From a virus (Duplodnaviria; Heunggongvirae; Uroviricota; Caudoviricetes), in the IMG/VR virus record IMGVR_UViG_2648501400_000018: 32,660 nucleotides of DNA; one strand, given 5' to 3'. The notes under the pieces were generated by a model. It had not been told where the DNA came from. It saw only the letters and a list, made by a program, of their open reading frames with translations, and ran no database searches. Position numbers and translations under genes: made by a program. Shown here piece after piece: positions 1,603-32,660 of the stretch (positions are counted from its first letter, which is position 1; each line of letters starts with the position of its first letter).

Positions 1603-1603
1603 C

Positions 1604-2292: not shown

Positions 2293-2388
2293 TTAATTAA
2301 ATAAGGCTATGAATATAAAAATCAGTGTAGTTATAGCGCTGGCCCATAATACAAAACGGTCAGCCAGCGATATCTTGCGGTATTGCAT
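2293..2388 (-). CDS. Candidate small hydrophobic peptide (about 31 aa; up to 42 aa from upstream ATG near 2421), not in the ORF track
   Basis: Minus-strand reading of the AT-rich gap between the B-like gene and the next early gene gives MQYRKISLADRFVLWASAITTLIFIFIALFN; an AAGGA Shine-Dalgarno lies about 6 nt upstream of the internal ATG. Coordinates approximate. Confidence 0.3.
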   Translation of the reverse strand: MQYRKISLADRFVLWASAITTLIFIFIALFN

Positions 2389-2423
2389 CACGTCCTTTCC
2401 GGTTAATTTGTGAAATACCATTT

Positions 2424-3548: not shown

Positions 3549-3557
3549 AACTCCCCC

Positions 3558-5312: not shown

Positions 5313-5605
5313 CCTTCCGGTAGTTCGGGAACTAACATCCAGTGGGTGATCTGTTTTGCCGGGTACGTTTCACTGGTGCAGTGAAACTCGCCATCAATAT
5401 AGTTAGCGGTTTCCACGCCGTAGCCATCACAGACCAGCACAAGGTCATAGTCACCAGGCAGTTGTGCGTCAGTGGCTATCCACGGTGAGGCCAGCGCATC
5501 CTTAAAAACGACTCTCAGCAGTCGGCCACCGAGGATATCGGCGTTAAAGTGGTAACTCGGCTCCTGCGGAGCCTTAGCGAAATCAATAACTAATGTGCGG
5601 ATCAT
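5306..5605 (-). CDS. Hypothetical protein
   Basis: 99 aa ORF overlapping its neighbours by a few bases (operon-like packing); no motif recognised. Confidence 0.35.
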   Translation of the reverse strand: MIRTLVIDFAKAPQEPSYHFNADILGGRLLRVVFKDALASPWIATDAQLPGDYDLVLVCDGYGVETANYIDGEFHCTSETYPAKQITHWMLVPELPEGC

Positions 5606-6537: not shown

Positions 6538-6548
6538 TAACTTGCTCC

Positions 6549-6848
6549 TTAGCGACTGCCAGCCAGCAACCGCTGATTCATTTCATTCAGCCTGTCCTGA
6601 GCGAGTGTGACTTCCGTCGCGTGGGCGTGGGCGATTTGCAGCATCGCCATACTCATGGCGAAGCGCCCATTTTCCAGCCGTTGTACCAGTCCCTCTTCGA
6701 TCAGAGTGTCAGCGGCGCGGGTGATATTGGCCGGGGATTCATGCAACGCCGCCGCCAATTCGCCATTGGACAACCCAGTGAGCGAGTAGCCTTTCAGGGC
6801 TTTGAGTACGCGCAGGATACGTGCGCCGGAAGTAGAGGTGGGTTTCAT
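6549..6848 (-). CDS. Small winged-HTH DNA-binding protein
   Basis: 99 aa ORF; HTH-like segment GLSNGELAAALHESPANITRAADTLIEEGLVQRL. Confidence 0.45.
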   Translation of the reverse strand: MKPTSTSGARILRVLKALKGYSLTGLSNGELAAALHESPANITRAADTLIEEGLVQRLENGRFAMSMAMLQIAHAHATEVTLAQDRLNEMNQRLLAGSR

Positions 6849-7084
6849 GCATGCATCTCCAGTGGTTGGACATGGCGGCTGATGTAGTGGTCAGAACAGG
6901 TGATGTTGCCTGGATCGTCCGGGCCGTTCAGCCCGGCAAACTCATCAACCAGAAATACGCTATATGCGGATAATCCTCGCTGACGCGGAATGCGGCGAAT
7001 AAACGTGCAGTGGTGTGGAGTTGATTGGCCAAATGAGGGCGTAATCAGTACGCGCTGGCCGGGGGTTAAATCGGTAGGTTTCAT
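6845..7084 (-). CDS. Hypothetical protein
   Basis: 79 aa ORF packed between the ner-like gene and the HTH gene; no motif recognised. Confidence 0.3.
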   Translation of the reverse strand: MKPTDLTPGQRVLITPSFGQSTPHHCTFIRRIPRQRGLSAYSVFLVDEFAGLNGPDDPGNITCSDHYISRHVQPLEMHA

Positions 7085-7094
7085 TGCGCTCTCC

Positions 7095-7319
7095 TTAGTT
7101 AGGTTCGTGCAGGATGCCTGGCACGATCTCTTTTCCGATGGTGCGGGACAGTTCTTTCAGGATGCGGAATGTAAGACGTCCGCGCGGCAAGTCCTGTTTG
7201 CCCGCCCAACGATCAACAGCTTGCGTAACCGTCCGGGGTTCGTAGCCGGTACTGATGGCGAACTGGCGAAAGTTGCTGCCCTGCTCAATCAGCCGCGCGT
7301 GGATTTGGTGTTTGTTCAT
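7095..7319 (-). CDS. ner: Ner-like DNA-binding regulator (Ner/Nlp family)
   Basis: 74 aa ORF; size and pattern (FAISTGYEPRTVTQAVDRWAGK) resemble Mu Ner; first gene of the leftward early operon and divergent from the repressor-like gene. Confidence 0.55.
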   Translation of the reverse strand: MNKHQIHARLIEQGSNFRQFAISTGYEPRTVTQAVDRWAGKQDLPRGRLTFRILKELSRTIGKEIVPGILHEPN

Positions 7320-7400
7320 TTGTTCCCTCTGAGCTATTATGTACTCAATTGGGTTTATTGTACGTACTCAAACGGGCAAGTCAACGACTAATATGCACAA
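7320..7400. promoter_or_regulatory. Divergent promoter/operator region between ner-like and repressor-like genes with two direct repeats
   Basis: Imperfect direct repeats TATTATGTACTCAA (about 7335-7348) and TATTGTACGTACTCAA (about 7356-7371) sharing GTACTCAA, in the 81 bp gap between divergent regulators. Confidence 0.4.
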
Positions 7401-7811
7401 ATGAACATAAAAGAAAGGCTCAAAAAAATACTCGCTGACAAAGCGTTATCAATCACTGATGCTGCCGCGCAGTGCGATATCCCATATCGTTCTCTACAAA
7501 ACTATCTGCGTGGCGAGCGAGAACCAAATGCGGAGGCATTGATCTCAATAGGTACCCATTTGGGTATAAATATTGATTGGCTGCTCACCGGCAGAGGAGG
7601 AATGCATCTGTCTGAACATGCGGATGTTTTGACTGAGCAGCCGGAATACAGCCATGCCGATTTGAAGTTACTGGAATTTTTGAATCAGTTGGAACCGGAT
7701 ATACGAAAGGATTTATTACGCAGTGCTGAAGAAAAACAGCGAGTGGCCGCCCTAGAAAAAAGATTAGAGGAATTGGCTTTAGAACTCGAAAGCCTAAAAC
7801 GTTCGGCGTAA
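7401..7811 (+). CDS. XRE-family HTH regulator, putative prophage repressor
   Basis: 136 aa ORF; N-terminal HTH (ITDAAAQCDIPYRSLQNYLRGEREPNAEALISIGTHLGINIDWLLTG); C-terminal coiled-coil-like region; divergent from ner-like gene. Confidence 0.55.
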   Translation: MNIKERLKKILADKALSITDAAAQCDIPYRSLQNYLRGEREPNAEALISIGTHLGINIDWLLTGRGGMHLSEHADVLTEQPEYSHADLKLLEFLNQLEPDIRKDLLRSAEEKQRVAALEKRLEELALELESLKRSA

Positions 7812-7849
7812 AGTGTTCTCATTAAGAACAAAACATGAAGGACTATGTT

Positions 7850-8371
7850 ATGAAACACTTTTTCTTACCTTTGGGGGGTTGTGCGCTGTTGTTGTCGGGA
7901 TGTGGTGATGACGATGTTACGCAGCCATCTGCATCGACAACGTTTACTGTTGAAACCGATAGTCCGGTAGTGAAGCGCGAATTGCCCTTTATTCGCCAAC
8001 AGTGTCCAGGACTGGATAAATACGCGGCAAACTTTGATAAATTTAAGGTCTACGACGACACGATGCGTCCGGTGACAACGGTGGAGTTTCACGTCAAGAA
8101 TGAGAACAGCATACCAGGTAATTACACCGCCTCTGATCATACCTGTTTCCTTTTCATCTCCAACAATGCCCACGAAGTGAAGATTTCAAAATCGGCCTGC
8201 CAGTCAGTTTGCTTTGATAAAGCGGATGTGCCGGGTGGGGATTTGGTTGTGAAACTGGATAAAGAAAGAGTTCCTATGACTGCTGATAAGAAACCACCAC
8301 GCGAGGGGTGCCTGATGGTTTACTCGCCAGAGCCGGATGGGGATTACTGGACGTGTCCAAGACAAGATTAA
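7850..8371 (+). CDS. Lipoprotein (signal peptide with lipobox LSGC)
   Basis: Start moved to the second ATG (MKHFFLPLGGCALLLSGCG), which has AAGGA about 7 nt upstream; six further cysteines in the mature part; AT-rich relative to late genes. Confidence 0.6.
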   Translation: MKHFFLPLGGCALLLSGCGDDDVTQPSASTTFTVETDSPVVKRELPFIRQQCPGLDKYAANFDKFKVYDDTMRPVTTVEFHVKNENSIPGNYTASDHTCFLFISNNAHEVKISKSACQSVCFDKADVPGGDLVVKLDKERVPMTADKKPPREGCLMVYSPEPDGDYWTCPRQD

Positions 8372-8448
8372 ACATGTTGTAAACAAAACAAAAAAGCGTG
8401 CAGACAGCACGCATTTACTATCTAACTCTACTGAAGGTTTCAGATTCT

Positions 8449-9480
8449 ATGCCAGCAAATGAACCTGCAAATGCAATCGTTGTAAATCATGTGGTTATTC
8501 ACCTTTTAGATAAAGAGCCGCATGGGGTGACATCCTTACAGCTTAGCCCGGCAGAGAGTGGCGTCACCGCAGCATCACAACGCTTAATAGATGATATCTG
8601 TGGGAAATATGCAGGGCGAATGGGGAAAGGTTATGGCCATTTTGAAGATGACCCTGACAATTACCCGATGCAAACAATCGTATCAGACTATTTAGCTCAA
8701 GAGCATCCTGATGATTTTTACCGTAGCTCCTGTCGCATGATTCGTCATCTGGAATCTCGGATTCAAACAACACCACTCGCTACTGGTGGCTATGTTCTAT
8801 TCGCCCACATTACGATGAATCAACACGAGCATATTCTAGTTGCCATGTTAAGCCCCACGACGGGAACTGCGGTTAACGATGCCTTTGCTATCCAGGAAAG
8901 TGTCTACCTTGATATCGACAAGCTACGTGTGGCGGGGCGTATTGACATTACGTCCTGGCAATCAGGTGCCGAACGTTATATAAGTTTCCTGAAAGGGAGC
9001 AATGCTGTATCTGGTTACTTTAAGCAGTTCCTGGGCTGTAACGATGTTTTGATCGCCAAGCGTGAAACAGAGAAATTGCGGGATGCGTTGAAAGAGTTTG
9101 CGACTGAGCAAGGGCTTGACCCCGCACGTCGAGAGGCTTTTCTGCAAACGGCCCATGACCATTTGAAGCAACTGAGCAAAGATGGTGAGCCTGTAGATCT
9201 GACAACCTTTGTGAACGCAGTCTGGCCACAAGAACCAGAGCTGCTATCGACTAAGCTGGCCAACCAAGAACTGGAACTGTCGGATGGTTTTGTCCCAGAT
9301 GGACGCGTACTAAAAGGAATCATTTCCTTTAAAGGAAAGTCCAATCATTGGGAGCTAAAGTTTGATCGTGCTGGTCTTCAAGATGGTTCAATTGAGTATA
9401 ATCGTAATCAGGATGTAATCATTCTAAGGAATATTCCTGATAGCTTCAGAGAAGAGATACTGGATGAGGTTGAGGAGTGA
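8449..9480 (+). CDS. NdpA/YejK-like nucleoid-associated protein family homolog
   Basis: N-terminal VNHVVIHLL, central GRIDITSWQSGAERYISFLKG...FLG and C-terminal WELKFD...LRNIPDSFREEI match remembered motifs of E. coli YejK; start placed at internal ATG MPANEP by alignment. Confidence 0.6.
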   Translation: MPANEPANAIVVNHVVIHLLDKEPHGVTSLQLSPAESGVTAASQRLIDDICGKYAGRMGKGYGHFEDDPDNYPMQTIVSDYLAQEHPDDFYRSSCRMIRHLESRIQTTPLATGGYVLFAHITMNQHEHILVAMLSPTTGTAVNDAFAIQESVYLDIDKLRVAGRIDITSWQSGAERYISFLKGSNAVSGYFKQFLGCNDVLIAKRETEKLRDALKEFATEQGLDPARREAFLQTAHDHLKQLSKDGEPVDLTTFVNAVWPQEPELLSTKLANQELELSDGFVPDGRVLKGIISFKGKSNHWELKFDRAGLQDGSIEYNRNQDVIILRNIPDSFREEILDEVEE

Positions 9481-10685
9481 GTATCAGTTTTGAGCAACTG
9501 GTGGGATTGTACAGGCAGATTACTTTCGGTAACGATATGGCCGAAGGTACGCTGGTGCTTACCCCAGAATCCTGCGAGTTGCTCAACGCTTTGCTTGAGG
9601 ACACCGATACATATGGGATCTCTCTGGCACAAGGTGAAGTAGTGGCTGGCCAGCAGGTGTCGCTTTTTGTGAACGCACCAAAGACAAAGCTAGGTCTGCT
9701 ATGCCGTAATTTGGCGGCTTTGTTAAAGTCGCCAAAACACCAAAGCGAGGAACCTTCCCGCTACTACCTGATCGACAGCCAATTTTATAGTTCGGATGCG
9801 CCAACATCCGTAATTGAAAACTACCGCACTATCTTAACATTTCTGCGCCTGCTTAAAGAAAAGTCGGCATACTTTGATACCAGTGCATATGAATGCGTTT
9901 TTTTCCGTGCCGATGTATTTAAATTACCTATACGTTACAGTGCAGAAACCGTAGAAAATCTTGATAAAACGACACTCGATGAACTCATTCAGCAGTTTTC
10001 TGACGACACACACAAAGAGCAGAAACTCTCGCTTTTAATTGAAAGCATCCAGTTAATCGGCCAGGAAACGGAAAACAATAAAGTCTTTGAGTATGCACTG
10101 AAGAACATTGATAAATTAAAAGTTGAGTTCGATAAGGGTTATCGCCTCTTCACTTCTGGGTTCTCATACGAAAAGGTTCTGGATGAACTTAGAACCGCCA
10201 AAGTTGAAGAAATGGGACGTATCCATAAAGTCTTTTCAGATATCCAAAACCAGATACTGGGTATCCCAGTCGCAACCATTATCGTCGCGACACAAATCAA
10301 GAAAGCAAGTGGTGATGTCTATCAAACCATTATCAATAGAGCAGTTTTTTTAGGGGCCTTTGTTTTTGCTACGTTGGTTATGTTGACTTTGTTCAACCAG
10401 TTACAGACGTTAACTGCTATCAAAGAAGAACTTCGACATAAAAAGACTCAGGTTGATAAAAAATATGCATCAATAAAAAATGACATTGATAGTATCTTTT
10501 GCTCTGTACGTAAACGTCTTTGCCGTCAGGTTATTGCGTTCTGGTTTATTATTATGTTCCTTGTTGTCGCTATTATATCGACAGGATTAATTTACCTATA
10601 CTGCACATACCCTGAAACATGGAATATCTTGGTTACAAAAGTGATGTCATGGCGGCATCACTTGAGCAATAAGCCCACTCCTTAA
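9477..10685 (+). CDS. Membrane protein with two C-terminal transmembrane helices, translationally coupled to the NdpA-like gene
   Basis: GTG start overlaps the upstream stop (GTGA); about 270 aa soluble N-domain then AVFLGAFVFATLVMLTLF and VIAFWFIIMFLVVAIISTGLIYLY. Confidence 0.5.
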   Translation: MSISFEQLVGLYRQITFGNDMAEGTLVLTPESCELLNALLEDTDTYGISLAQGEVVAGQQVSLFVNAPKTKLGLLCRNLAALLKSPKHQSEEPSRYYLIDSQFYSSDAPTSVIENYRTILTFLRLLKEKSAYFDTSAYECVFFRADVFKLPIRYSAETVENLDKTTLDELIQQFSDDTHKEQKLSLLIESIQLIGQETENNKVFEYALKNIDKLKVEFDKGYRLFTSGFSYEKVLDELRTAKVEEMGRIHKVFSDIQNQILGIPVATIIVATQIKKASGDVYQTIINRAVFLGAFVFATLVMLTLFNQLQTLTAIKEELRHKKTQVDKKYASIKNDIDSIFCSVRKRLCRQVIAFWFIIMFLVVAIISTGLIYLYCTYPETWNILVTKVMSWRHHLSNKPTP

Positions 10686-10750
10686 ACCCCTTTAAAAGCC
10701 TTCCTGCCAGCCATCCCCCACACTGCCTTCATCACCCAATGGAGGCACTT

Positions 10751-11038
10751 ATGAAAAATCTTTTCCCGCGTTTATCCGGCTGGCTGTTTGCCGCAGTTGT
10801 TTTGTTTGTACAAATAGTCGCGATCTCTCCGCAACAGGTTCCGGTGGTGGGTTACAAATTAAGCCTGATCTCACTGGCGGCGGTGCTGGGCTACTGGCTT
10901 GATCGCAGCCTGTTTCCCTATGCGCGACCTAATCATTTTTATCTGACGGAAGGTGAGCAACTATTGTTTGCTGCGTCCATGCTGCGCCGAGCCGTGATTG
11001 TCGCTGCTGTGTGCCTGGCCGTAGCGATGGGGATGTGA
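10751..11038 (+). CDS. Putative holin (three hydrophobic segments)
   Basis: Start placed at ATG preceded by GGAGG; hydrophobic stretches WLFAAVVLFVQIVAI, LSLISLAAVLGYWL, AVIVAAVCLAVAMGM; immediately upstream of the endolysin. Confidence 0.4.
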   Translation: MKNLFPRLSGWLFAAVVLFVQIVAISPQQVPVVGYKLSLISLAAVLGYWLDRSLFPYARPNHFYLTEGEQLLFAASMLRRAVIVAAVCLAVAMGM

Positions 11039-21382: not shown

Positions 21383-24070
21383 GTGGCTGCTGAATTTTCA
21401 ATCGGTGTGGTGATTAAAGGGATGATGGCGGGTTCGCTGTTGTCGGCTATTGGCGGAACGCAAAAAACCTTAAAAGGGCTGGAATCCACCACCGCACGCC
21501 TGAAAAAGCAACATGCAGATATGACGCAGGAACTGGCGCGTAATACCAATGGCAGCACCGAAGCCACGGCGCGACTAAACCGCGAGTTACAGAGTGTGGG
21601 CAGGACGCTGGAGAACCTGAAACTGCGGCACGATAACTTAGCTAACGCTGCCAGCCGGAGCGCTGCGCTGCGCTCCCAGCGCATGGAACTTTACGGACGC
21701 GGTCTGGAGACGATGGCGCAGGCAAAGGTAGTGTCGTCCCCCGTTGTTGCCTCGGTAAAACAGTATGCCGCCTTTGAGTCCGGGCTGCGTGATATCGCCG
21801 TGACGGGGGATCTGGACAGTAAGCAGGAGGCAGCAATTGGCAATGCCATTCGTCAGGCGGCAGGTCAGGTTAACCAGATGCAGGAGACGTTGCTTGGCGG
21901 CGTGAATCAACTGGTGGCTGATGGCATGAATCCAGAGAAAGCGGCAAATATGATTGGCCTGCTGGGTAAAACAGCCACCGCCACCGGCGCTGATATGACC
22001 GACCTGGCGAAAATGACCTATGCCTTCAGCGACGCGCTAAAAATCGGCGATGGCAAGGAGATGGAAGAGGCCTTTGCGCTGGCCGCTGCGGGTGCCAAAA
22101 CCGGCTCTTTTGAGCTGAAAGATATGGCAAAAGCGTTGCCGACGCTGGCAAAAAGTTTTGCCGCCAAAGGTATTACTGGCCCGGAGGCGATCAAGGAAAT
22201 TATTGCTTCACTGGAGCTGGGAAAAGGTGCAGGTTCGGCGGAGGAAGCCGTCACCAACATGACCAACTGGATGGGGGCGATGACGCGCGGTGACACTATC
22301 AAGAAATATGAAAAAGCGGGCGTGAAATATGATGCCTCCATGCAGGATTATGTTGCCAAGGGGTATTCGCAGTACGAAGCCTCGCTGATGATTGCCAATG
22401 AGTTTATTGACGGGAAAGGTGCGGCCTTTAAAAAGCAATGGGAGGCTGCGGGGGCAAAAGGCGACGGTGAAGCACAGCAAAAATTGATGGAATCCTTTGG
22501 TCTGTCAGAAATCTTTACCGATATCCAGACCGTCAACCATTTGCTGTCAATGCGTCAGAACTGGAGTCAGTACCAGACTAAAAAAACACAGATGGCGACC
22601 CCGGAAGCGCAAAAGACGCTGGATACCGACTTCGCAAAACAGGGCGATACGCTGGAGGCTCGTTGGCGAAAATCACAGGTTGCGCTGAATGAAGTGGCGT
22701 TGAGTATCGGCAGTTCGTTGTGCCCGGCGCTGATATCGCTGATGGATACCGTGGTGCCGTGGCTTGATGCGCTGGGGAAATGGGCAGCGGCGAACCCGGA
22801 AATTATCGCCGGGATCGGGAAAGCGGCGGCGGGATTTTTTGTTATTAAAAGTTCGATGATTGGCACCCAGATTGTGGCCAACTATTTATTTTCCACCTGG
22901 GCGGGCGGCGCAAAGGCGATTGCATTACTGGCTGCAAAAGGTACGCAGTTAAAAGCTGCCTTTTCCGTTGGTGGTAAACTGGCAGGCATCACTAAGTTGT
23001 TCGGCTCACTGGCGCGTGGCGCGTTGTCACTGGGTAAAATACTCGGTGGCGGACTCCTGCGCGGTCTGATGATGGCAGGACGCGCGGTGTTGTTTTTGGG
23101 CCGGGCGCTGATGATGAATCCCATCGGTCTGATCATCACCGGCATCGCCGTGGCCGCGTATCTGATTTACCGCTACTGGGGGCCGATTTCCGCTTTCTTT
23201 AAGCGGCTGTGGGCGCAGGTCACGGTAGCGTTTCGTGGGGCGTGGAGCGGCATCAAAGGTATCTGGAGTGGTGTGTCGGGCTGGTTCTCTGGTATCTGGG
23301 CGCAAATCAAAACCGCGTTCAGCGGCGGGATTGGCGGCGTGGCAAAGCTGATTACCAACTGGTCGCCGCTGGGCCTGTTCTATAAAGCCTTTGCCGGGGT
23401 GATGAAATACTTCGGTATTGATATGCCGAAAAACTTTACCGATTTTGGCGGCAATCTGATTAACGGTCTGGTGAACGGTATCGGCAATGCGCTGACTGCC
23501 GCGAAAGAGACGGTCGTTAACTTTGGTAACTCGATTTCAGGCTGGTTTAAGGAGACGCTGGGGATTCATTCCCCCAGCCAGGTGTTTGCCGGGTTCGGCG
23601 ACAATATCGCGCAAGGGGCCGCTATCGGTATCAACCGCACCGCCCCGGATGCGATTTCCGCCAGCCAGCAGATGGCACAGGCATTGATTCCACCCGCACC
23701 GGGTATCGTTGTTCCGGGCATTGCGGTGTCGGCCATTCCCCGACAGTCAGACGTTATGTTACATGGTGCTATGGGTGCGGCGCTGTCACAACCAAAACCA
23801 TTGCCGCCGATAACCCCCGGTGTCGCAGTCCCTGCTGTTCCTGAACTGCCGAAAAGTACCGCGCCAGCCGCCAAAGGCCGCAATGCCAGTGCGCACGTAC
23901 CGGGGCAGTCGTCCGGGGTGAATGTCACCTTCGCGCCGCAAATCACTATCAAAGGCGCAGCCTCAACGACCGAAGGTGAAATCACCTCGGCGCTGAAACT
24001 GAGCCTGCACGAACTGGAGAAGATGATGGAGCGGATTATGGCGCGTCGTGAACGCCGGGAGTATGCGTAA
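21383..24070 (+). CDS. Tail tape measure protein
   Basis: 895 aa ORF downstream of the chaperone/frameshift pair; long helical A/K/Q-rich regions and G/W-rich hydrophobic repeats (GIWSGVSGWFSGIWAQIKTAFSGG) typical of tape measure proteins. Confidence 0.75.
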   Translation: MAAEFSIGVVIKGMMAGSLLSAIGGTQKTLKGLESTTARLKKQHADMTQELARNTNGSTEATARLNRELQSVGRTLENLKLRHDNLANAASRSAALRSQRMELYGRGLETMAQAKVVSSPVVASVKQYAAFESGLRDIAVTGDLDSKQEAAIGNAIRQAAGQVNQMQETLLGGVNQLVADGMNPEKAANMIGLLGKTATATGADMTDLAKMTYAFSDALKIGDGKEMEEAFALAAAGAKTGSFELKDMAKALPTLAKSFAAKGITGPEAIKEIIASLELGKGAGSAEEAVTNMTNWMGAMTRGDTIKKYEKAGVKYDASMQDYVAKGYSQYEASLMIANEFIDGKGAAFKKQWEAAGAKGDGEAQQKLMESFGLSEIFTDIQTVNHLLSMRQNWSQYQTKKTQMATPEAQKTLDTDFAKQGDTLEARWRKSQVALNEVALSIGSSLCPALISLMDTVVPWLDALGKWAAANPEIIAGIGKAAAGFFVIKSSMIGTQIVANYLFSTWAGGAKAIALLAAKGTQLKAAFSVGGKLAGITKLFGSLARGALSLGKILGGGLLRGLMMAGRAVLFLGRALMMNPIGLIITGIAVAAYLIYRYWGPISAFFKRLWAQVTVAFRGAWSGIKGIWSGVSGWFSGIWAQIKTAFSGGIGGVAKLITNWSPLGLFYKAFAGVMKYFGIDMPKNFTDFGGNLINGLVNGIGNALTAAKETVVNFGNSISGWFKETLGIHSPSQVFAGFGDNIAQGAAIGINRTAPDAISASQQMAQALIPPAPGIVVPGIAVSAIPRQSDVMLHGAMGAALSQPKPLPPITPGVAVPAVPELPKSTAPAAKGRNASAHVPGQSSGVNVTFAPQITIKGAASTTEGEITSALKLSLHELEKMMERIMARRERREYA

Positions 24071-24976
24071 TGTTTGCCGTACTGGGGGATATTGAGTTTG
24101 AGGTGGTGACCTACTGGGACGGCTTTGATGCGTCGTTTGGCATGGATTACGCCGAGCACGCACGCATCGAAGGCAAACCGGGGTTGCAGTTTATCGGCGA
24201 AAAGCTGGATGAAGTCAGCATCAGTCTGGTGTTCCATGACCACTATTGCCAGCCGGATGTTGAACTGGCGCGGCTGCGTGGCGCATCAGGCGCTGGCGCT
24301 GGTGTTCGGCAACGGGGACTATCGCGGCTGGTTTGTGGTAACCGATATTCGGGCGACCAGCCAGCAGACCGATGGCCTCGGTAATGTGCAGGCGTTAAGT
24401 GCAGAGCTGTCGCTGAAGGAGTACATCGGCGATCCGAAAAATCCCCTGACGCCACCGGCTGTGTCCGGGGACGATCCGAATATCGATTCGTGGTCTGACG
24501 ATGCCGACGACAGTTTTTCCGGCAGCGATATGTTCGACGGCCTAAGCGATATTACCGACGGGCTGGATGCGGCATCGGACGCGCTGGATGCCGCAGAGCA
24601 GGCGTTCGATGAGGCAGTGTCGTGGGCGGAAGATGTGGTGGAGCAAGTTGAAGATGCGATTGATGACGTACTTTCACCGCTGGAGGACGTTCTCAATGAG
24701 GTGTTATCACCACTCGATGAGGTGATGCAGGCGCTGGAGGGTATCATGGGCGGCGGCGTACTGACCGATGCTCTCGGCGAGGTCGGGCAAGTCGCCTCGC
24801 AGATTTACGATGAAATCAGCAGTACGTTGACCGGGCTTGACGGTATCACCCCCGACAACTTTGCCGATCTGTTCTCGCAGGCACTGGACGTGGTGCGCAA
24901 CGGTCAGTCATTGATGGAAGCGTGTTCTCCCGCCGTTAGCAGGCTGGCGGCGGCAATCATTACCAGGAGCGTGTGA
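24070..24976 (+). pseudogene. Tail protein gpU-like / Mu DNA-circulation (N)-like gene with a +1 frame change near 24277-24290
   Basis: Frame A (24070-24384) has a gpU-like N-terminus up to ...DVELARLR; frame B (24125-24976) continues the family pattern from ...HQALALVFGNGDYRGWFVVTDI and carries an acidic C-terminal region. Confidence 0.5.
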
Positions 24977-25194
24977 TGGGCGGCTGGATTGAACATATCA
25001 CCACCGAGGGCGAGCGCTGGGATAATCTGGCGTTCCTCTATTACGGCGATCCAATGGGCTATGAGCGCATCATTGTCGCTAACCCCCATATTGCGATCAC
25101 GCCGACACTGGCCTCCGGGCTGCGGTTGCGTATTCCGGTGATCGGCCCGATGCAGGTGCATAACGTTGATGAGGTGCCGCCGTGGCTCAGGTAA
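24973..25194 (+). CDS. Tail protein X-like (LysM-like small tail protein)
   Basis: 73 aa ORF; pattern GERWDNLAFLYYGDPMGYERIIVANPHIAITPTLASGLRLRIP resembles P2 gpX. Confidence 0.6.
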   Translation: MMGGWIEHITTEGERWDNLAFLYYGDPMGYERIIVANPHIAITPTLASGLRLRIPVIGPMQVHNVDEVPPWLR

Positions 25195-26282
25195 ATGCCG
25201 TTATCACCCCCGTTTTCACCCTGTTTTACGGGCAGAAAGATATCACTCACGATATTGCTCCTTTTGTCCTGAGCGTGACGTATACCGACAGTCTCAAGAG
25301 CGAATCGGATGAAATCGACGTGCAGGTGGAAGACACCGCCGGGCGCTGGCGCGAGGCGTGGTATCCGGGCAAAGGCGATATGCTGATGCTGAAGTTGGGC
25401 TATCAGGGCGAAGCGTTGCTGGACTGTGGAGCGTTCTCCATCGATGAGATTGAGCTGGGCGCACCGCCGGATACGGTATCCATTCGCGGCGTGGCGACGT
25501 CGGTCAACAGCGCTCTGCGTACCGCCTCCAGCGAGGGCTACGAAGAGACGACGCTGGATGCGATTGCCAGCCGTATCGCGCAGAAGCATGGTCTGAAGCT
25601 GGTCGGTCAGATAGAGCCGATTACCATTGACCGGGTGACGCAATACGCGGAAACCGACGTCGGTTTTCTGAAGCGGCTGGCGGGTGAGTATGGTTATGCG
25701 CTGAAAGTCACCACTGGCGAGCTGGTGTTTTCCCATCTGGCTACACTGCGAAGTAACGCGCCGGTGACGACGCTGACGCCGCAGGATGTAGCGCGCTGGT
25801 CGCTGCGCGATACCATCAACCGCATCTATAAGGATGCAAAGGTGGCGCATCAGAAGAGTAAAGAGAAGACGCTGGTGACGTACCACGCCGACGGCCCGCC
25901 GACCACGGAGACGCGTGGTAAATCGACCAGCGCCGATACGCTCAAGGTCAATGCACGGGCGGCGGATCAGGGGACGGCGCAGGTGAAAGCCGAGGCGGCG
26001 CTGGATGACCATAACGAGTATCAGCAGACCGGTTCGCTCTCGATGATGGGCAACACGCAGCTTATCGCCGGGAACAAAATCACTCTCGACGGGTTCGGCG
26101 TGCTCTCCGGGGAGTGGCTGATCACCAGCGCCCGTCACTCGTTTGACCGTTCATCGGGCTACAGCACCGAAATTGAGGTCGGACGTGGCCCGAAAACGGC
26201 CTCCGGCGGCGGGAAGAAGAAAAAACCGGATACGCTGACCGTCTATCACCCGGACGGCCCACCCACCCAGGAGAAAAAATGA
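25182..26282 (+). CDS. Baseplate hub / late control D-like tail protein
   Basis: 366 aa ORF immediately upstream of the gpV-like spike gene; size and synteny as P2 gpD / Mu P-like proteins. Confidence 0.55.
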   Translation: MAQVNAVITPVFTLFYGQKDITHDIAPFVLSVTYTDSLKSESDEIDVQVEDTAGRWREAWYPGKGDMLMLKLGYQGEALLDCGAFSIDEIELGAPPDTVSIRGVATSVNSALRTASSEGYEETTLDAIASRIAQKHGLKLVGQIEPITIDRVTQYAETDVGFLKRLAGEYGYALKVTTGELVFSHLATLRSNAPVTTLTPQDVARWSLRDTINRIYKDAKVAHQKSKEKTLVTYHADGPPTTETRGKSTSADTLKVNARAADQGTAQVKAEAALDDHNEYQQTGSLSMMGNTQLIAGNKITLDGFGVLSGEWLITSARHSFDRSSGYSTEIEVGRGPKTASGGGKKKKPDTLTVYHPDGPPTQEKK

Positions 26283-26770
26283 AAGGCGTCACCCGACAGA
26301 CCGGGATTATCAGCGATATCGACGAGGTGAAGGTGTGCGTGCGCGTCACCCTGCCGGAATGCGACGATCTGCGCACCAACTGGCTCCCCATCCTGCAACG
26401 CAATACGCAGGACAATAAGGACTACTGGCTGCCGGATATCGGCGAGCAGGTGGAGGTGCTGCTGGATGATAACGGCGAGGATGGCGTGGTGCTGGGGGCG
26501 GTCTATTCGTCGGTGGATACGCCACCGGTGACGGACAAAGACAAGCGCTATGTGCGGTTCTCCGATAAGGCCGCGATTGAGTACGACCGCAAACAGCACC
26601 AGTTGACCATTAATGGCGGCATTGAAAAAATCGTGATTGAGGTGAAAACCAGCGTCAGCATCACCGCGCCGCAGGTGGTCATCACGGGTAATGTCCGCGT
26701 CACCGGCAATATCAGTGCGTCAGGCTCTATCATCGACGCTGGCGGCAATACCAACCATCACTCTCATTAA
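26279..26770 (+). CDS. Baseplate assembly protein V-like (spike)
   Basis: 163 aa ORF; N-terminal pattern GIISDIDEVKVCVRVTL...WLPDIGEQVEVLL...VVLGAVYSS resembles the P2 gpV N-terminal domain. Confidence 0.65.
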   Translation: MKGVTRQTGIISDIDEVKVCVRVTLPECDDLRTNWLPILQRNTQDNKDYWLPDIGEQVEVLLDDNGEDGVVLGAVYSSVDTPPVTDKDKRYVRFSDKAAIEYDRKQHQLTINGGIEKIVIEVKTSVSITAPQVVITGNVRVTGNISASGSIIDAGGNTNHHSH

Positions 26771-26816
26771 AGCGGTTTAATATCGCCACTTTAGCAACGG
26801 GGGCGACAATGCCCCC

Positions 26817-27176
26817 ATGAGCACACAATCCCATCCTTTAAATCTGCACTGGCAACCGGCCCTGAAACGCGACGGCGAGTACGTCTGTGGGCTGGAGGAT
26901 ATCAGCCAGGCCGTTCACATCATTCTGCGCACGCCGCGCGGTAGCGATCCCCATCGCCCCTTTTTCGGTAGCGACCTGTGGCGCTATATCGACTGGCCTG
27001 CTGAACGGGCGATTCCCCATGTGGTGCGTGAGTCGGTGGAGGCTATCCGCCACTGGGAGCCGCACTGCAAATTTCTCAAAGTGGTGCCGGAACTGGACGG
27101 CGAACATCTCACGCTGCGCATCCAGTGGCGCGCCGCCGATGGCGTTATTAATGAAACGGAGGTGGTATGGCGTTAG
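26817..27176 (+). CDS. Baseplate protein W-like (gp25-like wedge protein)
   Basis: 119 aa ORF; pattern LEDISQAVHIILRTPRGSDPHRPFFGSDL...EAIRHWEP resembles P2 gpW. Confidence 0.65.
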   Translation: MSTQSHPLNLHWQPALKRDGEYVCGLEDISQAVHIILRTPRGSDPHRPFFGSDLWRYIDWPAERAIPHVVRESVEAIRHWEPHCKFLKVVPELDGEHLTLRIQWRAADGVINETEVVWR

Positions 27177-28282
27177 CTGAACCCGATTTTATCGACCGCG
27201 ACCCGGCGCAAATCACCAGTGAGATGATTGCGCAGTATGAAGCGGTGAGCGGTAAAACGCTCTATCCGGCGCAGGCGGAGCGGCTGCTGATTGATGTTAT
27301 TGCCTATCGTGAAAATCTGCTGCGCATCGGCATTCAGGAGGCGGCAAAGCAGAATCTGGTGGCGTTTTCCCGTGCGCCAATGCTCGATTACCTCGGCGAA
27401 CTGGTGGGCGTGAAGCGCCTGCCTGCGCAGGCGGCACAGACCACGTTGCGGTTTTCCGTTGCCAGCGCGCAAAAGCGCAATGTGCTGATCCCGGAGGGCA
27501 CCCGCGCCAGCGCGGCCAACAGCGTGATGTTTGCCACCGATGACGATGTGCTGCTGCCAGCCGGAAGTCTGAGCGTCGATGTCACGGCCACATGTACCAC
27601 CGCTGGCGTTGTGGGTAATGGCTGGCAACCGGCGCAGATTAGCGCACTGGTGGACAGCGTGGCAGGTGTCGATTTGCAGGTGACGAACATTACCGCGTCC
27701 GGCGGCGGCTGCGCCGATGAAAGCGACGACGCCCTGCGCGAGCGTATCCGGCTGGCTCCTGAAAGTTTCAGTAACGCGGGGAGTTATGGCGCATACCGCT
27801 TTCATGCGCTGTCAGTCAGCCAGGCGATTATCGACGTGGCCATCCTCGGCCCGGATGAGGGGCTGGATGAAGGTTGCGTGGAGATTTACCCGCTGACGCA
27901 GGACGGTCTGCCGGGCGATGAGTTGCTGGCACAGGTGGTGCAGGATGTCAGTAAAGAGAAGAAACGCCCGTTGACCGATAAGGTAAGCGCGAAGAAACCA
28001 CTGCGCGTGGCATATCAGATTAACGCGCAACTCACGCTATTCACTAAAGCCGATCAGGACTCGACGCTGCTGGCCGCGCGTAAGGCCATCGCCGACTGGA
28101 CGGCAGAGCGCGAGCGCCATCTGGGGCGGGATATCGTCCCCAATCAAATCATCAAAGTGTTGCAGGTGGCGGGTGTCTATGACGTGGCGCTGGAAACACC
28201 TGCCAAACGAGTGCTCGCGGCACATGAGTGGGCGCAGTGTACCTCGATTGATGTGACCATCGCCGGGGTGAGCGATGGATAA
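27167..28282 (+). CDS. Baseplate protein J-like
   Basis: 371 aa ORF after the W-like gene with overlapping start; size and synteny of P2 gpJ. Confidence 0.65.
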   Translation: MALAEPDFIDRDPAQITSEMIAQYEAVSGKTLYPAQAERLLIDVIAYRENLLRIGIQEAAKQNLVAFSRAPMLDYLGELVGVKRLPAQAAQTTLRFSVASAQKRNVLIPEGTRASAANSVMFATDDDVLLPAGSLSVDVTATCTTAGVVGNGWQPAQISALVDSVAGVDLQVTNITASGGGCADESDDALRERIRLAPESFSNAGSYGAYRFHALSVSQAIIDVAILGPDEGLDEGCVEIYPLTQDGLPGDELLAQVVQDVSKEKKRPLTDKVSAKKPLRVAYQINAQLTLFTKADQDSTLLAARKAIADWTAERERHLGRDIVPNQIIKVLQVAGVYDVALETPAKRVLAAHEWAQCTSIDVTIAGVSDG

Positions 28283-28985
28283 GTTACCGCTTCAACCGCC
28301 GCTCGCCGGGGATGAACGCTTTACCCGGCTGGCAAATCTTGCCGCTGAACGCTTCGCACAACTCGATCTGACCGCGCTTCTGATTTATCTGGTGGATGCC
28401 ACGGCGCTGCCGTCGCTGGCAGAACAGTTCCACGTTCAGGGGCTGGAAGGCTGGCTGTTTGCCCGCGATGAGCGACAAAAGCGCGATCTGATCAAGCAGG
28501 CCATTGAGCTGCACCGCTATCGCGGTACGCCGTGGGCAGTGCGTCAGGTACTGAAGATTCTGGCGTTGGACGGCGATATCAGCGAGTGGTTTGAGTATGG
28601 CGGTAAGCCGTACTTTTTCCGCATGGATGTCACGCTTGAGACGCGCGGGCTGACTGAGGATGAATTTAACGCGCTGATTGTGCTGATCCATGAGTACAAG
28701 AACGTCCGCTCAAAGCTGGAGATGCTGACTATCTGGCTGATTAACCAGAGCCAGATCCCGGTTATCGCCAGTGCTGTTCAGGGCGGCGAGATTGCTACCG
28801 TTCTGCCGTGGATTGCGGAGAGCGTGAGTCAGTCGTCTGCGGTTTATCTGGCGACGGAGTGTTTGAGTGCAGAGGTGGTAACGGTGTTGCCTCCGCTGCA
28901 TGGCAATGTTGAGCAGACCAGCGTTATGAGTGTTGGAGCGGGCTGCTGGAGTATTGAGTTTGTCACTGTTTACCCGGAGGAGTAA
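28275..28985 (+). CDS. Tail protein I-like (baseplate)
   Basis: 236 aa ORF between the J-like gene and the tail fibre gene, overlapping both, as P2 gpI. Confidence 0.6.
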   Translation: MDKLPLQPPLAGDERFTRLANLAAERFAQLDLTALLIYLVDATALPSLAEQFHVQGLEGWLFARDERQKRDLIKQAIELHRYRGTPWAVRQVLKILALDGDISEWFEYGGKPYFFRMDVTLETRGLTEDEFNALIVLIHEYKNVRSKLEMLTIWLINQSQIPVIASAVQGGEIATVLPWIAESVSQSSAVYLATECLSAEVVTVLPPLHGNVEQTSVMSVGAGCWSIEFVTVYPEE

Positions 28986-30685
28986 TGGCGAGTGAATTTT
29001 TTACCATTTTAACCGCCGCTGGCCGCGCGAAGATTGCTGCGGCGCTGGCGGAACAAAAGCAGATAGTGCTGCAAACAATGGTCGTTGGCGACGGCGGCGG
29101 GCAGTATGCCGAACCGAAAGAGAGCCAGACAAAGGTGGTGCGTGAAGTCTGGCGCGGGTCACTGAATACGCTGAAAATCGCCCCGGAAAACCCGGCGTGG
29201 GTGATTGCCGAGGCGGTACTGCCGGAAGCGAAAGGCGGCTGGTATATCCGCGAGGTGGGATTGCTGGATATGGACGGCGTGCTGATTGCCATCGGCAAGT
29301 TCCCGGAAACCTATAAGCCGAAGCTGCCTGCCGGGGCCAGTAAGCAAATTGTGATCCGCGCTGTGATGGAAGTGACGAACGCGGCGGCGGTAACGCTGAT
29401 GGTTGATCCGTCGCTGGTGATGGCAACGGTAGATTATGTGGACTCCAGTATTGAAGAGCACGAAAGATCACATAATCACCCGGACGCAACGCTGACGCAG
29501 AAAGGCTTTACGCAGCTTAACAGCTCCACCAATAGCACGCTGGAAACGCAGGCAGCAACGCCGAAGGCGGTGAAGGCGGCGATGGATAAGGCGAATGAGG
29601 CACTGGAAAAAGCTGGGGCTGATAAAGCGCATAAACATCCGTGGGCCGATATTACCGGGGTGCCGGATGGGACAACGGCGCAGAAAGGGGTTGTGAAGCT
29701 TAATAGCTCAACGAACAGTACCAGTACGACGGAGGCTGCGACACCGAGTGCGGTTAAGGCGGCATATGACCTGGCGAATGGTAAGGCGGCGGGGAGCCAT
29801 AAACATGCCTGGGGCGATATTACCGGGGTACCGGATGGCACTACGGCGCAAAAAGGGATCGTAAAGCTCAACAGCGCGACGAACAGCACCAGTACTACCG
29901 AAGCGGCCACGCCCGGCGCAGTGAAGGCGGCGTATGACCTGGCGAACGGGAAAGCGGCTTCCAGCCATACTCACGCATGGAGTCAGATTACCGGCGTACC
30001 GGATGCAACTACAGCGCAAAAAGGGGTTGTGAAGCTTAATAGCGCGACGAACAGTACCAGTACGACTGAAGCCGCAACGCCGAGCGCGGTTAAGGCGGCG
30101 TATGACAAGGCGAATACAGCAATCTCCAGTTTTGCTCTTTTCACGTCGAATGGGACGTTTACGGTGCCAGTCGGGGTAACGAAAGTGATGGTGGAAATGA
30201 TTGGAGGTGGAGGTGGTGGCGGCGGCGGTGGTGTGGGTGGTGGTGAGCGAATTGGTTATCCGACAGCAGGTAAACCATCACTTTTTGTTCAAGGGATTGT
30301 TGCTGTGAACTCTGGACAAAATGTAACCGTCACAGTCGGCGGAGGCGGTGTTGGGGGATCATCAAAAGTAGATACTGGTGGTGGTTCGATGACCGGGAGT
30401 AATGGGTACGCCGGAGGAAACTCAATTTTCTTAACGCTCACTTCTGTTGGTGGTAGCGGCGGCGGCGGTGCATTGCCAGATTCTGGTCCTGGCAACGCAT
30501 TAAATGAGCCAGGTTCTGATTCAACGCATGGCTATGGCGGGGGGACTAAGTATAACTCGCAGAAAAATGCCGTAGGTTATGGTTCGAGTGGTGCGGCTGG
30601 TACCTCTAAAGGCGTCAGAACTGTTGAAGGGGACTCTACAGCAGGTGGCAATGGTGCTTCAGGTTTTGTCAGAATATGGTGGTAA
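28985..30685 (+). CDS. Tail fibre protein (P2 gpH-like N-terminus, internal tandem repeats, glycine-rich low-GC C-terminal domain)
   Basis: N-terminus (FFTILTAAGRAKIAAALA...VVGDGGG...VWRGSLN...WYIREVGLLDMDGVLIAIGKFPETYKP) matches the conserved gpH anchor domain; about four repeats of AQKG[VI]VKLNS[AS]TNSTSTTEAATP.AVKAAYD; poly-Gly C-terminus. Confidence 0.75.
   Translation: MASEFFTILTAAGRAKIAAALAEQKQIVLQTMVVGDGGGQYAEPKESQTKVVREVWRGSLNTLKIAPENPAWVIAEAVLPEAKGGWYIREVGLLDMDGVLIAIGKFPETYKPKLPAGASKQIVIRAVMEVTNAAAVTLMVDPSLVMATVDYVDSSIEEHERSHNHPDATLTQKGFTQLNSSTNSTLETQAATPKAVKAAMDKANEALEKAGADKAHKHPWADITGVPDGTTAQKGVVKLNSSTNSTSTTEAATPSAVKAAYDLANGKAAGSHKHAWGDITGVPDGTTAQKGIVKLNSATNSTSTTEAATPGAVKAAYDLANGKAASSHTHAWSQITGVPDATTAQKGVVKLNSATNSTSTTEAATPSAVKAAYDKANTAISSFALFTSNGTFTVPVGVTKVMVEMIGGGGGGGGGGVGGGERIGYPTAGKPSLFVQGIVAVNSGQNVTVTVGGGGVGGSSKVDTGGGSMTGSNGYAGGNSIFLTLTSVGGSGGGGALPDSGPGNALNEPGSDSTHGYGGGTKYNSQKNAVGYGSSGAAGTSKGVRTVEGDSTAGGNGASGFVRIWW
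29477..30118 (+). repeat. Tandem coding repeats (about 168-183 bp period, about 3.7 copies) inside the tail fibre gene
   Basis: Repeat units start at about residues 171, 232, 288 and 344 of the fibre protein; nucleotide-level near-identity is visible between units. Confidence 0.6.
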
Positions 30686-30688
30686 CAC

Positions 30689-31291
30689 ATGAAATATGCG
30701 TATTTTGAACCCTCATCAATGAAGGTTTTAGACTGGCTGGATACCGAACAATTATCCTTTGTTTTGCCTGACAGTGTTGTTTCGGTAACTGATGAGCAAT
30801 GGTGTTATCGTGATCGTGAATGCTGGGTCAATATTTCAACCACAGAAATCATCACAACACCTCCACCCGGTGATTTTTATCGGCTTGATGGTGATAAGTG
30901 GGTGTATGACGCAACCAGCTATACTGCTGCGCTAGACGGTGCTAAGTCACTAGTTGTTAAGGCAATCAAGGCGCTACGCGATGAAGTCACTGCCGATTAT
31001 ATCATTATCGGCGACTATCACTTTCACAGCGATGCCAGCAGTCGTATCCAGCAAATGTCACTCACCAGGATGGGGCAAACGAAGCAAATCCCCAAAGGCT
31101 TAATGTGGCAGACCAAAAACCTCGGACTTCTCGAGCTAACCAATGAAATCGCGGCGCAGTTTGAGTCCATTACAATGGATCACGATATGCGCCTCTTTGC
31201 CAATGCCCAGCGACATATTGCCGCCGTTGAGGCGCTGGAAGATATCCTGGCAGTTCAGGAGTATGACTACTCTACGGGGTGGCAACCATGA
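30689..31291 (+). CDS. Hypothetical protein downstream of tail fibre (possible fibre assembly/accessory protein)
   Basis: 200 aa ORF starting 4 nt after the fibre stop; AT-rich like the fibre C-terminus; no motif recognised. Confidence 0.3.
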   Translation: MKYAYFEPSSMKVLDWLDTEQLSFVLPDSVVSVTDEQWCYRDRECWVNISTTEIITTPPPGDFYRLDGDKWVYDATSYTAALDGAKSLVVKAIKALRDEVTADYIIIGDYHFHSDASSRIQQMSLTRMGQTKQIPKGLMWQTKNLGLLELTNEIAAQFESITMDHDMRLFANAQRHIAAVEALEDILAVQEYDYSTGWQP

Positions 31292-31740
31292 GGCCGGTGT
31301 ATCTGGCGTTCTATAAAGGGCGAGCCGATCATCATGGGTTCGCACGTCTTTCCGACTGGCTGACGCGGCTGGTGACGCGGGGTGAGTATTCTCACTGCGA
31401 GCTGGCTGTTGACCAGGGTAACGGCGAGTTTCTTTGTTATTCGTCGTCGGTGCGTGACAAGGGGGTGCGCTGTAAGCAAATGCCGCTGCCACTCGATAAA
31501 TGGGATCTTATCGCGCTAAATGCGCTACCAACCAGTGTGGAGCAGTTCTTCCGTCGAAACGACGCCATGAAATATGACTGGCTGGGGGCTGTGGGATTCG
31601 TTGTTTTTAATCGTGGACGGGAGAACAAATATTTCTGTAGCGAGTTTTGCGCAGATTTTCTTGGACTGGTCGATAGCTGGCGTTATTCACCCAATATGCT
31701 CCACGCGCTGGCCAGCAGTATTCAGACTATGAAGTTATAA
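31288..31740 (+). CDS. Hypothetical protein (Cys/His-containing, possibly enzymatic)
   Basis: Start placed at internal ATG giving an ATGA overlap with the upstream gene; motifs YSHCELAV and KYFCSEFCADF; function unknown. Confidence 0.3.
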   Translation: MRPVYLAFYKGRADHHGFARLSDWLTRLVTRGEYSHCELAVDQGNGEFLCYSSSVRDKGVRCKQMPLPLDKWDLIALNALPTSVEQFFRRNDAMKYDWLGAVGFVVFNRGRENKYFCSEFCADFLGLVDSWRYSPNMLHALASSIQTMKL

Positions 31741-31886
31741 GGGAAACAGCGACCAGAGTCAGGCGGTCACCTGACTCTGACCAGCTAACCCGCAGGAAGT
31801 GTCTGCGAGCCGCCCAGGGCTGCCACTGATGGCCATCAGTCCAATAAGCCTAACAGTTTTTCACATACTGAAAAAGGTTTGCAGAA

Positions 31887-32660
31887 ATGAAAACATTACC
31901 CATTATTCCGTGGCCCGGCGGTAAGCGTCGTCTGGCCAAAAAGTTATTACCGTTATTTCCTGAGCACCAGTGTTATGTAGAGCCATTCTGCGGCGGTGCA
32001 GCCTTGTATTTCATGAAGGAGCCGGTTGAAGCTGAAGTCCTGAACGATATCAACGGCGAACTGGTGAATCTGTACCGTGTGGTTAAAAATCATCTTGAAG
32101 AGTTTGTGCGCCAGTTCAAGTGGGCGTTGAGCAGCAGGCAGATTTTTGAATGGTCGAAAATGACCATCCCGGAGACGCTAACTGATATTCAGCGTGCAGC
32201 GCGGTTTTATTATCTCCAGAAGCAATCATTCGGAGGGAAAGTGGAATCACAGACGTATGGAACGGCGACCACTTCTGCACCACGGCTTAATCTGCTAAGG
32301 CTGGAAGAGGAGTTGAGCGCCGCCCATTTGCGGCTATCACGCACGTTTGTAGAACATTTACCGTGGCGTACCTGCATTGAGAAGTATGATCGCCCGCACA
32401 CACTGTTCTATTGCGATCCCCCGTATTGGGGAACGGAGGGCTACGGTGTTGAATTTGGACTGGAGCAGTACACCCAACTTGCAGAGTTGGCCAGAACGAT
32501 AAAAGGCAGGATGTTGATCAGTGTGAACGATATCCCGGAGATGCGTGAAACCTTTGCGGACTTGTCGATTGATACGGTAGATATTCGCTATACGTTGAGC
32601 GGTGGGCCTAATGCTAATCGCTCGAAAGTCAGCCGTGAGCTGGTCATTCGTAACTGGTAA
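31887..32660 (+). CDS. Dam-family (D12-class) N6-adenine DNA methyltransferase
   Basis: N-terminal SAM-binding pattern PGGKRRL...CYVEPFCGGAALYF; catalytic DPPY in LFYCDPPYWG; C-terminal RMLISVND; arrangement parallels E. coli Dam. Confidence 0.75.
   Translation: MKTLPIIPWPGGKRRLAKKLLPLFPEHQCYVEPFCGGAALYFMKEPVEAEVLNDINGELVNLYRVVKNHLEEFVRQFKWALSSRQIFEWSKMTIPETLTDIQRAARFYYLQKQSFGGKVESQTYGTATTSAPRLNLLRLEEELSAAHLRLSRTFVEHLPWRTCIEKYDRPHTLFYCDPPYWGTEGYGVEFGLEQYTQLAELARTIKGRMLISVNDIPEMRETFADLSIDTVDIRYTLSGGPNANRSKVSRELVIRNW

Follow-up and report, generated by a model that had tools for sequence, protein, structure and literature searches.

It is textbook knowledge that temperate myophages can alter their host range by exchanging a tail fibre tip together with its cognate chaperone, and such exchange has long been established for phages of the P2, Mu and lambda types. 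The stretch of DNA analysed here (IMG/VR virus record IMGVR_UViG_2648501400_000018, 32,660 nucleotides, hereafter the window) is a transposable, Mu-like Escherichia coli prophage with a P2-like tail (P2-type baseplate and fibre), and it raises the question of which part of its host-range apparatus has been exchanged in this way. The tail fibre gene (28985-30685, plus strand) encodes a protein of 566 amino acids and is followed, 3 nt after its stop codon, by a gene coding for a 200-amino acid protein with a DUF4376 domain (30689-31291, plus strand), a putative fibre chaperone. An initial annotation, made from the sequence alone, proposed that the low-GC, glycine-rich C-terminal end of the fibre and the downstream gene were a swapped host-range module acquired from a lower-GC source. 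Our analysis indicates that the fibre tip and the N-terminal domain of the chaperone form an exchangeable cassette which has probably been replaced by recombination, an event that would alter receptor specificity and leave tip and chaperone matched.

Borders of the cassette in composition and homology

A two-breakpoint likelihood scan of GC content at third codon positions (GC3) along 2174 tail-gene codons delimited a low-GC3 tract at 30194-31006 (plus strand), in which GC3 is 0.357 as compared with 0.675 in the surrounding tail genes. This segment has a log-likelihood ratio of 49.2, whereas none of 200 permutations exceeded 13.0, and a Fisher test gives p = 5.5e-23. In the sliding profile, GC3 lies at 0.53-0.75 before falling to 0.28-0.45 around nt 30155-30185. 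It remains low past the gene boundary and recovers to 0.57-0.67 starting at roughly codon 91-105 of the downstream gene, which has 200 codons (approximately nt 30960-31006). The abrupt change in codon usage that the initial annotation had placed within the fibre gene is real and its left border was rightly drawn. The right border had been set about 285 nt too far, as the AT-richness does not continue through the whole of the next open reading frame (ORF). Upstream of the tract, the baseplate-proximal, gpH-like N-terminal domain of the fibre (amino acids 1-150; 28985-29434, plus strand) and the repeat shaft (amino acids ~169-380; 29435-30124, plus strand) are backbone parts, GC-rich as had been described, with GC3 values of 0.69 and 0.60.

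The term "low-GC" suits this region at third codon positions, and much less so for total GC, which in the fibre goes from 0.569 before 30200 to 0.523 in 30200-30685, a value as low as or lower than which is found in 6.5% of the 486-nt segments of the structural region. A plain GC plot shows little because 30% of the tip residues are glycines and codon positions 1 and 2 are GC-rich. The same glycine content suggests that the shift could be a by-product of composition, runs of G being avoided through the codons GGT and GGA, and GGT is indeed the commonest glycine codon in the tip (26/55) whereas GGC dominates upstream. However, codons other than those for glycine shift as well (GC3 0.327 in the tip vs 0.612 upstream), the tract takes in about 100 codons of the next gene as well, whose product is not rich in glycine, and it coincides with the homology breakpoints. 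We rejected such a codon artefact on the non-glycine figures and hold it to be extremely improbable.

These breakpoints were located by blastn of the window against a related prophage carried by the complete genomes of E. coli OkiPb01694 (locus L003) and A35. Identity to OkiPb01694 is 89.6% over 24000-29938; from there only about 73% is alignable up to 30232, the last codon of a run of ten consecutive glycine codons (amino acids 407-416; 30203-30232, plus strand). This run is the last left-side DNA similarity to the relatives, the BLAST high-scoring segment pair ending at 30232. DNA similarity is undetectable over 30233-30862 and resumes at 85% identity over 30863-31886. The core of the exchanged cassette (30233-30862, plus strand), delimited by blastn against L003 and a second locus, L001, and by protein alignments, comprises the hypervariable part of the tip and the start of the downstream gene (~58 codons). 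At the protein level, identity to the OkiPb01694 relative is 97% for the fibre N-terminus, 41% for the tip, 43% for residues 1-88 of the DUF4376 protein and 92% for its C-terminal domain. Against the phage collection, megablast of 26000-32660 gave zero matches and blastn of the same region found two Salmonella records only, over the 3' part of the chaperone gene.

Comparison of 34 related loci, taken from a Salmonella phage contig, a prophage remnant of Salmonella SARB27 (whose genes bear the LT2 locus tags STM4198-4207), E. coli assemblies and 27 IMG/VR contigs, allowed us to follow the parts of the locus separately. The loci collapse to 22 distinct combinations, on which pairwise identities and Spearman correlations (rho) were computed. 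Mean pairwise identity is 0.86 for both the fibre N-terminus and the chaperone C-terminal domain, but falls to 0.33 in the tip and to 0.35 in the chaperone N-terminal domain. Tip and chaperone N-terminal domain vary together (rho 0.80), as do fibre N-terminus and chaperone C-terminal domain (rho 0.66), and all cross terms are at most 0.06 (0.00-0.06 for tip or N-terminal domain vs backbone). Backbones that are 96-99% identical bear different tip classes, namely glycine-rich subtypes, a Collar/HxH tip (STM4200), a short tip (L032) and a long one (L034), each of which pairs with its own class of N-terminal domain: the Collar/HxH tip with a domain matching the first half of Caudo_TAP (STM4199), the glycine-rich tips with a domain carrying the motif MxKYAYY..VLDW. 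Such pairings on near-identical backbones are the signature of a cassette moving as a unit, independently of its flanks.

The possibility that no exchange took place, and that tip and N-terminal domain diverged in place under diversifying selection with silent sites drifting toward AT-richness, has to be weighed against these figures. The glycine-rich alleles all retain the same architecture and the conserved glycine-rich motifs, low GC3 is found family-wide in the variable region whichever allele is present, and no donor was found, all of which would fit divergence in place. It is difficult to reconcile with a fall in identity from ~90% to undetectable within a few bases and an equally abrupt recovery, with unrelated tip folds (Collar/HxH or glycine-rich) and unrelated N-terminal domains on those 96-99%-identical backbones, with a tip identity uncorrelated with backbone identity (rho 0.06), or with the finding of the tip-plus-DUF4376 pair on unrelated backbones. 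We consider divergence in place improbable.

The tip thus shares neither the phylogenetic neighbours nor the composition of the rest of the tail module, and the idea of a swapped host-range module stands, with one amendment. What belongs to the module is the tip and the first 60-105 codons of the chaperone gene, and not the whole accessory gene, the DUF4376 C-terminal domain being part of the backbone by both its identity and its GC3.

The glycine-rich tip and its DUF4376 partner

Examination of the fibre with Pfam revealed a P2 gpH-type protein, with a PF12571 N-terminus (E 2.4e-56 over amino acids 1-149) and PF03406 "phage tail fibre repeat" units in four stretches (E 4.8e-68), to which a C-terminal PF21722 domain is appended. 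The last three shaft repeats are also direct repeats of 168 nt at the DNA level (29630-30133, 74-80% identical). The number of shaft repeats varies among relatives, with four protein repeats in the window and three in E. coli OkiPb01694, and fibre length ranges from 517 to 637 amino acids across the related loci. The exact fibre protein, annotated as "tail fiber protein [Escherichia coli]", is present on 101 contigs. Many of its database entries are "partial" proteins of 395-409 amino acids, with a separate 149-amino acid partial protein covering the remainder, and assembly breaks seem to recur in draft genomes at or close to the (GGN)10 tract at 30203-30232.

The C-terminal domain (amino acids 387-566; 30143-30685, plus strand), in which 30% of the residues are glycine, is a putative receptor-binding domain of the tumour necrosis factor (TNF)-like/glycine-rich type. 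It matches Gly_rich_2 (PF21722) over amino acids 387-557 with 29.1 bits for a cut-off of 24.3, and its ends are conserved, with an N-terminal strand motif FTSNGTFTVPVGVTKVMVEMIGGGG and a C-terminal GFVRIWW. In an alignment of 18 tips the mean column identity is 41%, and the invariant or near-invariant columns are nearly all glycines, together with the first and last strands. An AlphaFold2 model of amino acids 383-566, built with 14 diverse homologues, has a mean predicted local distance difference test score (pLDDT) of 78.5 and a predicted template modelling score of 0.78; its strands and first glycine motifs are of high confidence and its loops of low confidence. The poly-glycine region (model residues 21-30) reaches a pLDDT of 92. 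On account of these glycine columns and of the model, the poly-glycine run is to be seen as the first glycine-rich structural motif inside a folded domain, and neither the linker that the initial annotation had taken it for nor a junction located at a linker.

The sequence profile of the tip finds Pam3 gp24 end to end (E 2e-5). In Pam3, gp24 is a TNF-like sandwich whose strands run into a glycine-rich lattice, with a hypervariable distal tip proposed as receptor binder (PMC9608196). The tip of the window shows the same combination, with a beta-sandwich, strands extending into a glycine-rich lattice at the C-terminal end of the fibre, and conserved glycine-rich motifs separated by variable loops. 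Pam3 gp24 and its chaperone gp25 (PDB 7YPX/7YFW; PMC9608196) provide a solved precedent for the fold of the tip as well as for the chaperone logic, although the Pam3 fibre has a short helical stalk where the present one has a P2 gpH-type N-terminus and a four-repeat shaft, and the Pam3 host is a cyanobacterium rather than E. coli. The DUF4376 C-terminal domain of the chaperone is absent from the structural neighbours listed for Pam3 gp25. Likenesses to the tip at 18-28% identity extend to unrelated contexts, namely a siphophage tail decoration in mycobacteriophage Bxb1 (the "tail wing brush" gp33, with gp29; PDB 9D93) and the glycine-rich domain of an animal receptor ectodomain, that of the ALK receptor kinase (PDB 7LRZ, 7LIR). 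From its distal position, its hypervariability and the proposal made for Pam3 (PMC9608196), we infer that the tip binds the host receptor and sets host range.

The downstream protein consists of two domains of contrasting history. A beta-rich N-terminal domain (amino acids 1-88; 30689-30952, plus strand; GC3 0.30-0.47) is variable and co-varies with the tip. The conserved C-terminal domain (30953-31288, plus strand; GC3 0.57-0.67), a succession of helix, beta-hairpin, helix, beta-hairpin and helix, is a backbone part and carries the DUF4376 match (PF14301, amino acids 86-194, 38.8 bits vs a cut-off of 25). Among 120 homologues, identity is 15-65% for the N-terminal domain vs 61-93% for the C-terminal one. 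The AlphaFold2 model of the protein has a pLDDT of 92.9, and 467 blocks of assemblies are indexed as containing this exact protein.

Its position after the fibre, the variability of its N-terminal domain, the co-variation of the latter with the tip and published evidence on DUF4376 make it most likely that the gene encodes a two-domain fibre chaperone. In Campylobacter CJIE1 a DUF4376 gene located after the fibre is needed for fibre function (PMC7882524), and in Alteromonas phage V22 a DUF4376 gene has been assigned as a tail fibre chaperone (PMC10579305). As in the window, CJIE1 and V22/A5 have a C-terminal DUF4376 in a protein of ~200-240 amino acids encoded directly after the fibre, but their fibres and N-terminal domains differ from the enterobacterial ones, which are known here from sequence (PMC10579305, PMC7289586, PMC7882524). 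In chaperones of the Tfa type, a non-conserved N-terminal domain binds the tip and a conserved C-terminal domain oligomerises (North et al. 2019, as relayed in PMC9608196 and PMC7882524).

Similarity to the S/U genes of Mu and the H/G genes of P2 lies in gene order (a fibre gene, then one for an assembly protein), in modular logic (a non-conserved N-terminal domain that binds the tip, a conserved C-terminal domain that assembles) and in history, fibre C-termini having been exchanged horizontally with the chaperone. It does not extend to detectable sequence similarity. The DUF4376 protein has no PF02413 (Caudo_TAP) match at E <= 0.01, hhalign against Mu U gave a probability of 0.5% and no profile similarity, and the DUF4376 profile gave zero matches to PDB chain sequences. 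Mu U itself is PF02413 over amino acids 40-175 and lacks a DUF4376 match; the published statement that Mu U and the DUF4376 chaperone share DUF4376 (PMC7882524) was not reproduced in the present analysis. The DUF4376 protein would accordingly work like Tfa, yet it is not a member of the Tfa/Caudo_TAP family that can be detected by sequence.

Sister alleles offer a view of how the two chaperone types may be related. The Salmonella gene STM4199 (L002, 7464-8165) and ~30 homologues encode chimeric chaperones of 233-245 amino acids, in which an unassigned N-terminus is followed by the first 73 positions of the Caudo_TAP profile and then by DUF4376 in place of the C-terminal half of Caudo_TAP. The fusion of the N-terminal half of Caudo_TAP to DUF4376 suggests that DUF4376 replaces the canonical Tfa C-terminal domain.

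Probable replacement of the cassette and origin of its alleles

Taken together, the fibre would be tripartite, with a conserved domain for attachment to the baseplate, a shaft of repeats and a TNF-like/glycine-rich tip. In the tip, conserved glycine-rich motifs would serve as scaffold, and the host receptor is most likely touched by the variable loops that separate them. The variable N-terminal domain of the chaperone would grip the tip side, and the conserved DUF4376 C-terminal domain would drive oligomerisation and assembly. The cassette would run from the first glycine-rich motif (about 30200-30232) to approximately codon 60-105 of the chaperone (about 30860-31000) and would be replaced by homologous recombination between its flanks, the 5' strand and poly-glycine motif on the left and the DUF4376 C-terminal domain on the right. 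The poly-glycine run, as the last conserved DNA before the variable part, is a plausible left recombination arm. The incoming allele would have the same architecture and a highly divergent sequence, and the outcome would be an altered receptor specificity with tip and chaperone still matched.

Since the phage is Mu-like, and since the invertible G segment of Mu holds both the U gene and the C-terminal part of the fibre, programmed variation was considered as well, either through a G-like invertible segment (S/U genes and an invertase) or through a diversity-generating retroelement. The window has neither the invertible segment nor the Caudo_TAP-type U of Mu. It holds no second, inverted copy of tip and chaperone and no flanking inverted repeats, the only inverted pair being one of 14 nt located elsewhere in the fibre, and the genes past the chaperone are a 150-amino acid ORF and a D12 methyltransferase rather than an invertase. 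No repeat of 30125-31010 is found elsewhere in the window, nor is any long ORF with a YxDD reverse-transcriptase motif. In the absence of an inverted copy, an invertase, a template repeat and a reverse-transcriptase-like ORF, both types of switch were rejected for the window, and we attach hardly any weight to programmed variation as the source of the tip.

The initial annotation had proposed to look for the same tip on unrelated phage backbones. An exhaustive HMMER search of 1.84 billion representatives yielded only 81 tip relatives, the best of them 46% identical. Two of the 81 were placed on contigs, P0127 in an HP1-like tail cluster and P0129 in P2 gene order. At the N-terminus these two fibres share only 22-27% identity with that of the window, and each fibre is followed by a DUF4376 gene of ~200 amino acids whose N-terminal domain is 47-59% identical to that of the window. 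Other Gly_rich_2 domains follow a Collar domain (P0134) or occur as tandem copies (P0128). The occurrence of the glycine-rich tip with DUF4376 on HP1-like and P2-order backbones indicates that the architecture is portable. Three further searches add little. A tblastn of the tip against phages found none, even though an L001 tip 37% identical to it is in the collection, because the low-complexity filter removes the tip, and the result is uninformative; a word-indexed protein search with the tip returned the same E. coli protein only, the search being swamped by poly-glycine words. With the 88-amino acid N-terminal domain of the chaperone, the word-indexed search gave zero candidates even though the collection contains the protein.

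Several observations weigh against replacement of the cassette as a strict unit from a foreign source. The architecture was found on unrelated backbones, but a near-identical copy of the cassette was not: the best tip is at 46% and the best N-terminal domain at 65% identity, too distant to point to a donor or a direction of transfer. Tip and N-terminal domain are uncoupled in L012/L018 (tip 100%, N-terminal domain 70%) and in L001/L016 (N-terminal domain 99%, tip 61%), so the match need not be strict. The structural model of the tip is a monomer with weak loops, pLDDT falling below 50 at model residues 118-143. Finally, almost all cassette alleles are GC3-poor (0.27-0.40), including those with unrelated tip folds, and low GC3 is for that reason not evidence of a single recent import. 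Among the uncoupled pairs (L012/L018, L001/L016 and L011/L012) are N-terminal domains 99% identical with tips at 57-61%. Recombination also acts within the cassette, and the chaperone tolerates differing tip loops.

The last of these points bears directly on the claim that the module was acquired from a lower-GC source, which could not be established given the distance of the nearest tip and the general GC3 poverty of the alleles. Median GC3 is 0.32 for tips and 0.31 for N-terminal domains, whereas the flanks stand at 0.67 and 0.59. A shallower dip is seen on HP1-like and P2-order backbones, with tips at 0.43-0.53 vs 0.60 in the fibre before the tip, and the chaperone N-terminal domain on unrelated backbones has a GC3 of 0.55 vs 0.70 for the C-terminal domain in one case (L037) and of 0.65 vs 0.66, which is no dip, in another (L036). 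The low-GC3 signature is a property of the cassette pool, or of the position, rather than the mark of one recent import. The pool is AT-richer at silent sites than the 58-60% GC backbone, which can be read in two ways: either it circulates among AT-richer enterobacterial phages, of which the 58-60% GC backbone is an outlier, or the cassette evolves fast enough to lie near an AT-rich mutational equilibrium.

A more speculative proposal, which we think rather unlikely, extends the second of these readings. The GC3 deficit may mark an evolutionary regime of its own, that of a recombination-hot cassette with silent sites near an AT-rich equilibrium, rather than a foreign origin. The split of the chaperone would then be a functional partition, the C-terminal domain co-evolving with the shaft or baseplate, as its correlation with the fibre N-terminus (rho 0.66) may indicate, and the N-terminal domain with the tip. 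DUF4376 itself would represent a second type of assembly domain, distinct in structure and possibly prefoldin-like, able to replace the Tfa C-terminal domain.

The prophage setting and the meaning of the cassette

The fibre gene is directly preceded by genes encoding baseplate gpJ and gpI, as in P2 gpH-type fibres, identified with Pfam as Baseplate_J (27167-28282) and Tail_P2_I (28275-28985). On the other side, an ORF of 150 amino acids (31288-31740, plus strand), whose ATG overlaps the stop codon of the DUF4376 gene (ATGA), serves as the right-hand backbone marker. It is the homologue of Salmonella locus tag STM4198, is kept in all relatives and has a backbone-type GC3; it has no Pfam match and matches PHROG 1128 ("enoyl-CoA hydratase/carnithine racemase-like", moron category) with E 5e-57.

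Elsewhere in the window, the transposable nature of the prophage is marked by a DDE (rve) transposase (3558-5312, minus strand), an AAA_22 ATPase (2424-3548, minus strand), a DUF3164 protein (1604-2221, minus strand) and a Mu-type portal. The early region (1-6900) lies on the minus strand, opposite in direction to the late genes. Many E. coli assemblies carry fibre and DUF4376 proteins identical to these, in at least 3 differing chromosomal neighbourhoods, which is consistent with transpositional insertion.

Two other regions of the window depart from the backbone. Similarity to the ~90%-identical OkiPb01694 prophage ends at 31886. Beyond it, at 31887-32660, the window encodes a D12-class N6-adenine methyltransferase (GC 0.50), whereas the relative has Com and Mom at this place. 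A second module has thus been replaced, at the right end of the prophage. An AT-rich patch at 7000-11000 (GC 0.45 vs 0.58 in the structural genes), which includes a gene for NA37, a 37-kDa nucleoid-associated protein (8398-9480), and an ORF of 402 amino acids with no Pfam match (9477-10685), is probably an acquired accessory region.

The low-GC3 tract carries a methodological caution, namely that a glycine-rich domain can mask a large silent-site shift in plain GC plots. Our analysis gives base-level borders for a portable cassette made of a fibre tip and a chaperone N-terminal domain, in a widespread E. coli prophage, and these borders are the ones to use for retargeting phages or R-type pyocins. 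It also assigns the hitherto uncharacterised Gly_rich_2 tip of enterobacterial prophages to the fold of Pam3 gp24, and suggests that DUF4376 stands in for the usual Tfa C-terminal domain at a locus where both types of chaperone occur.

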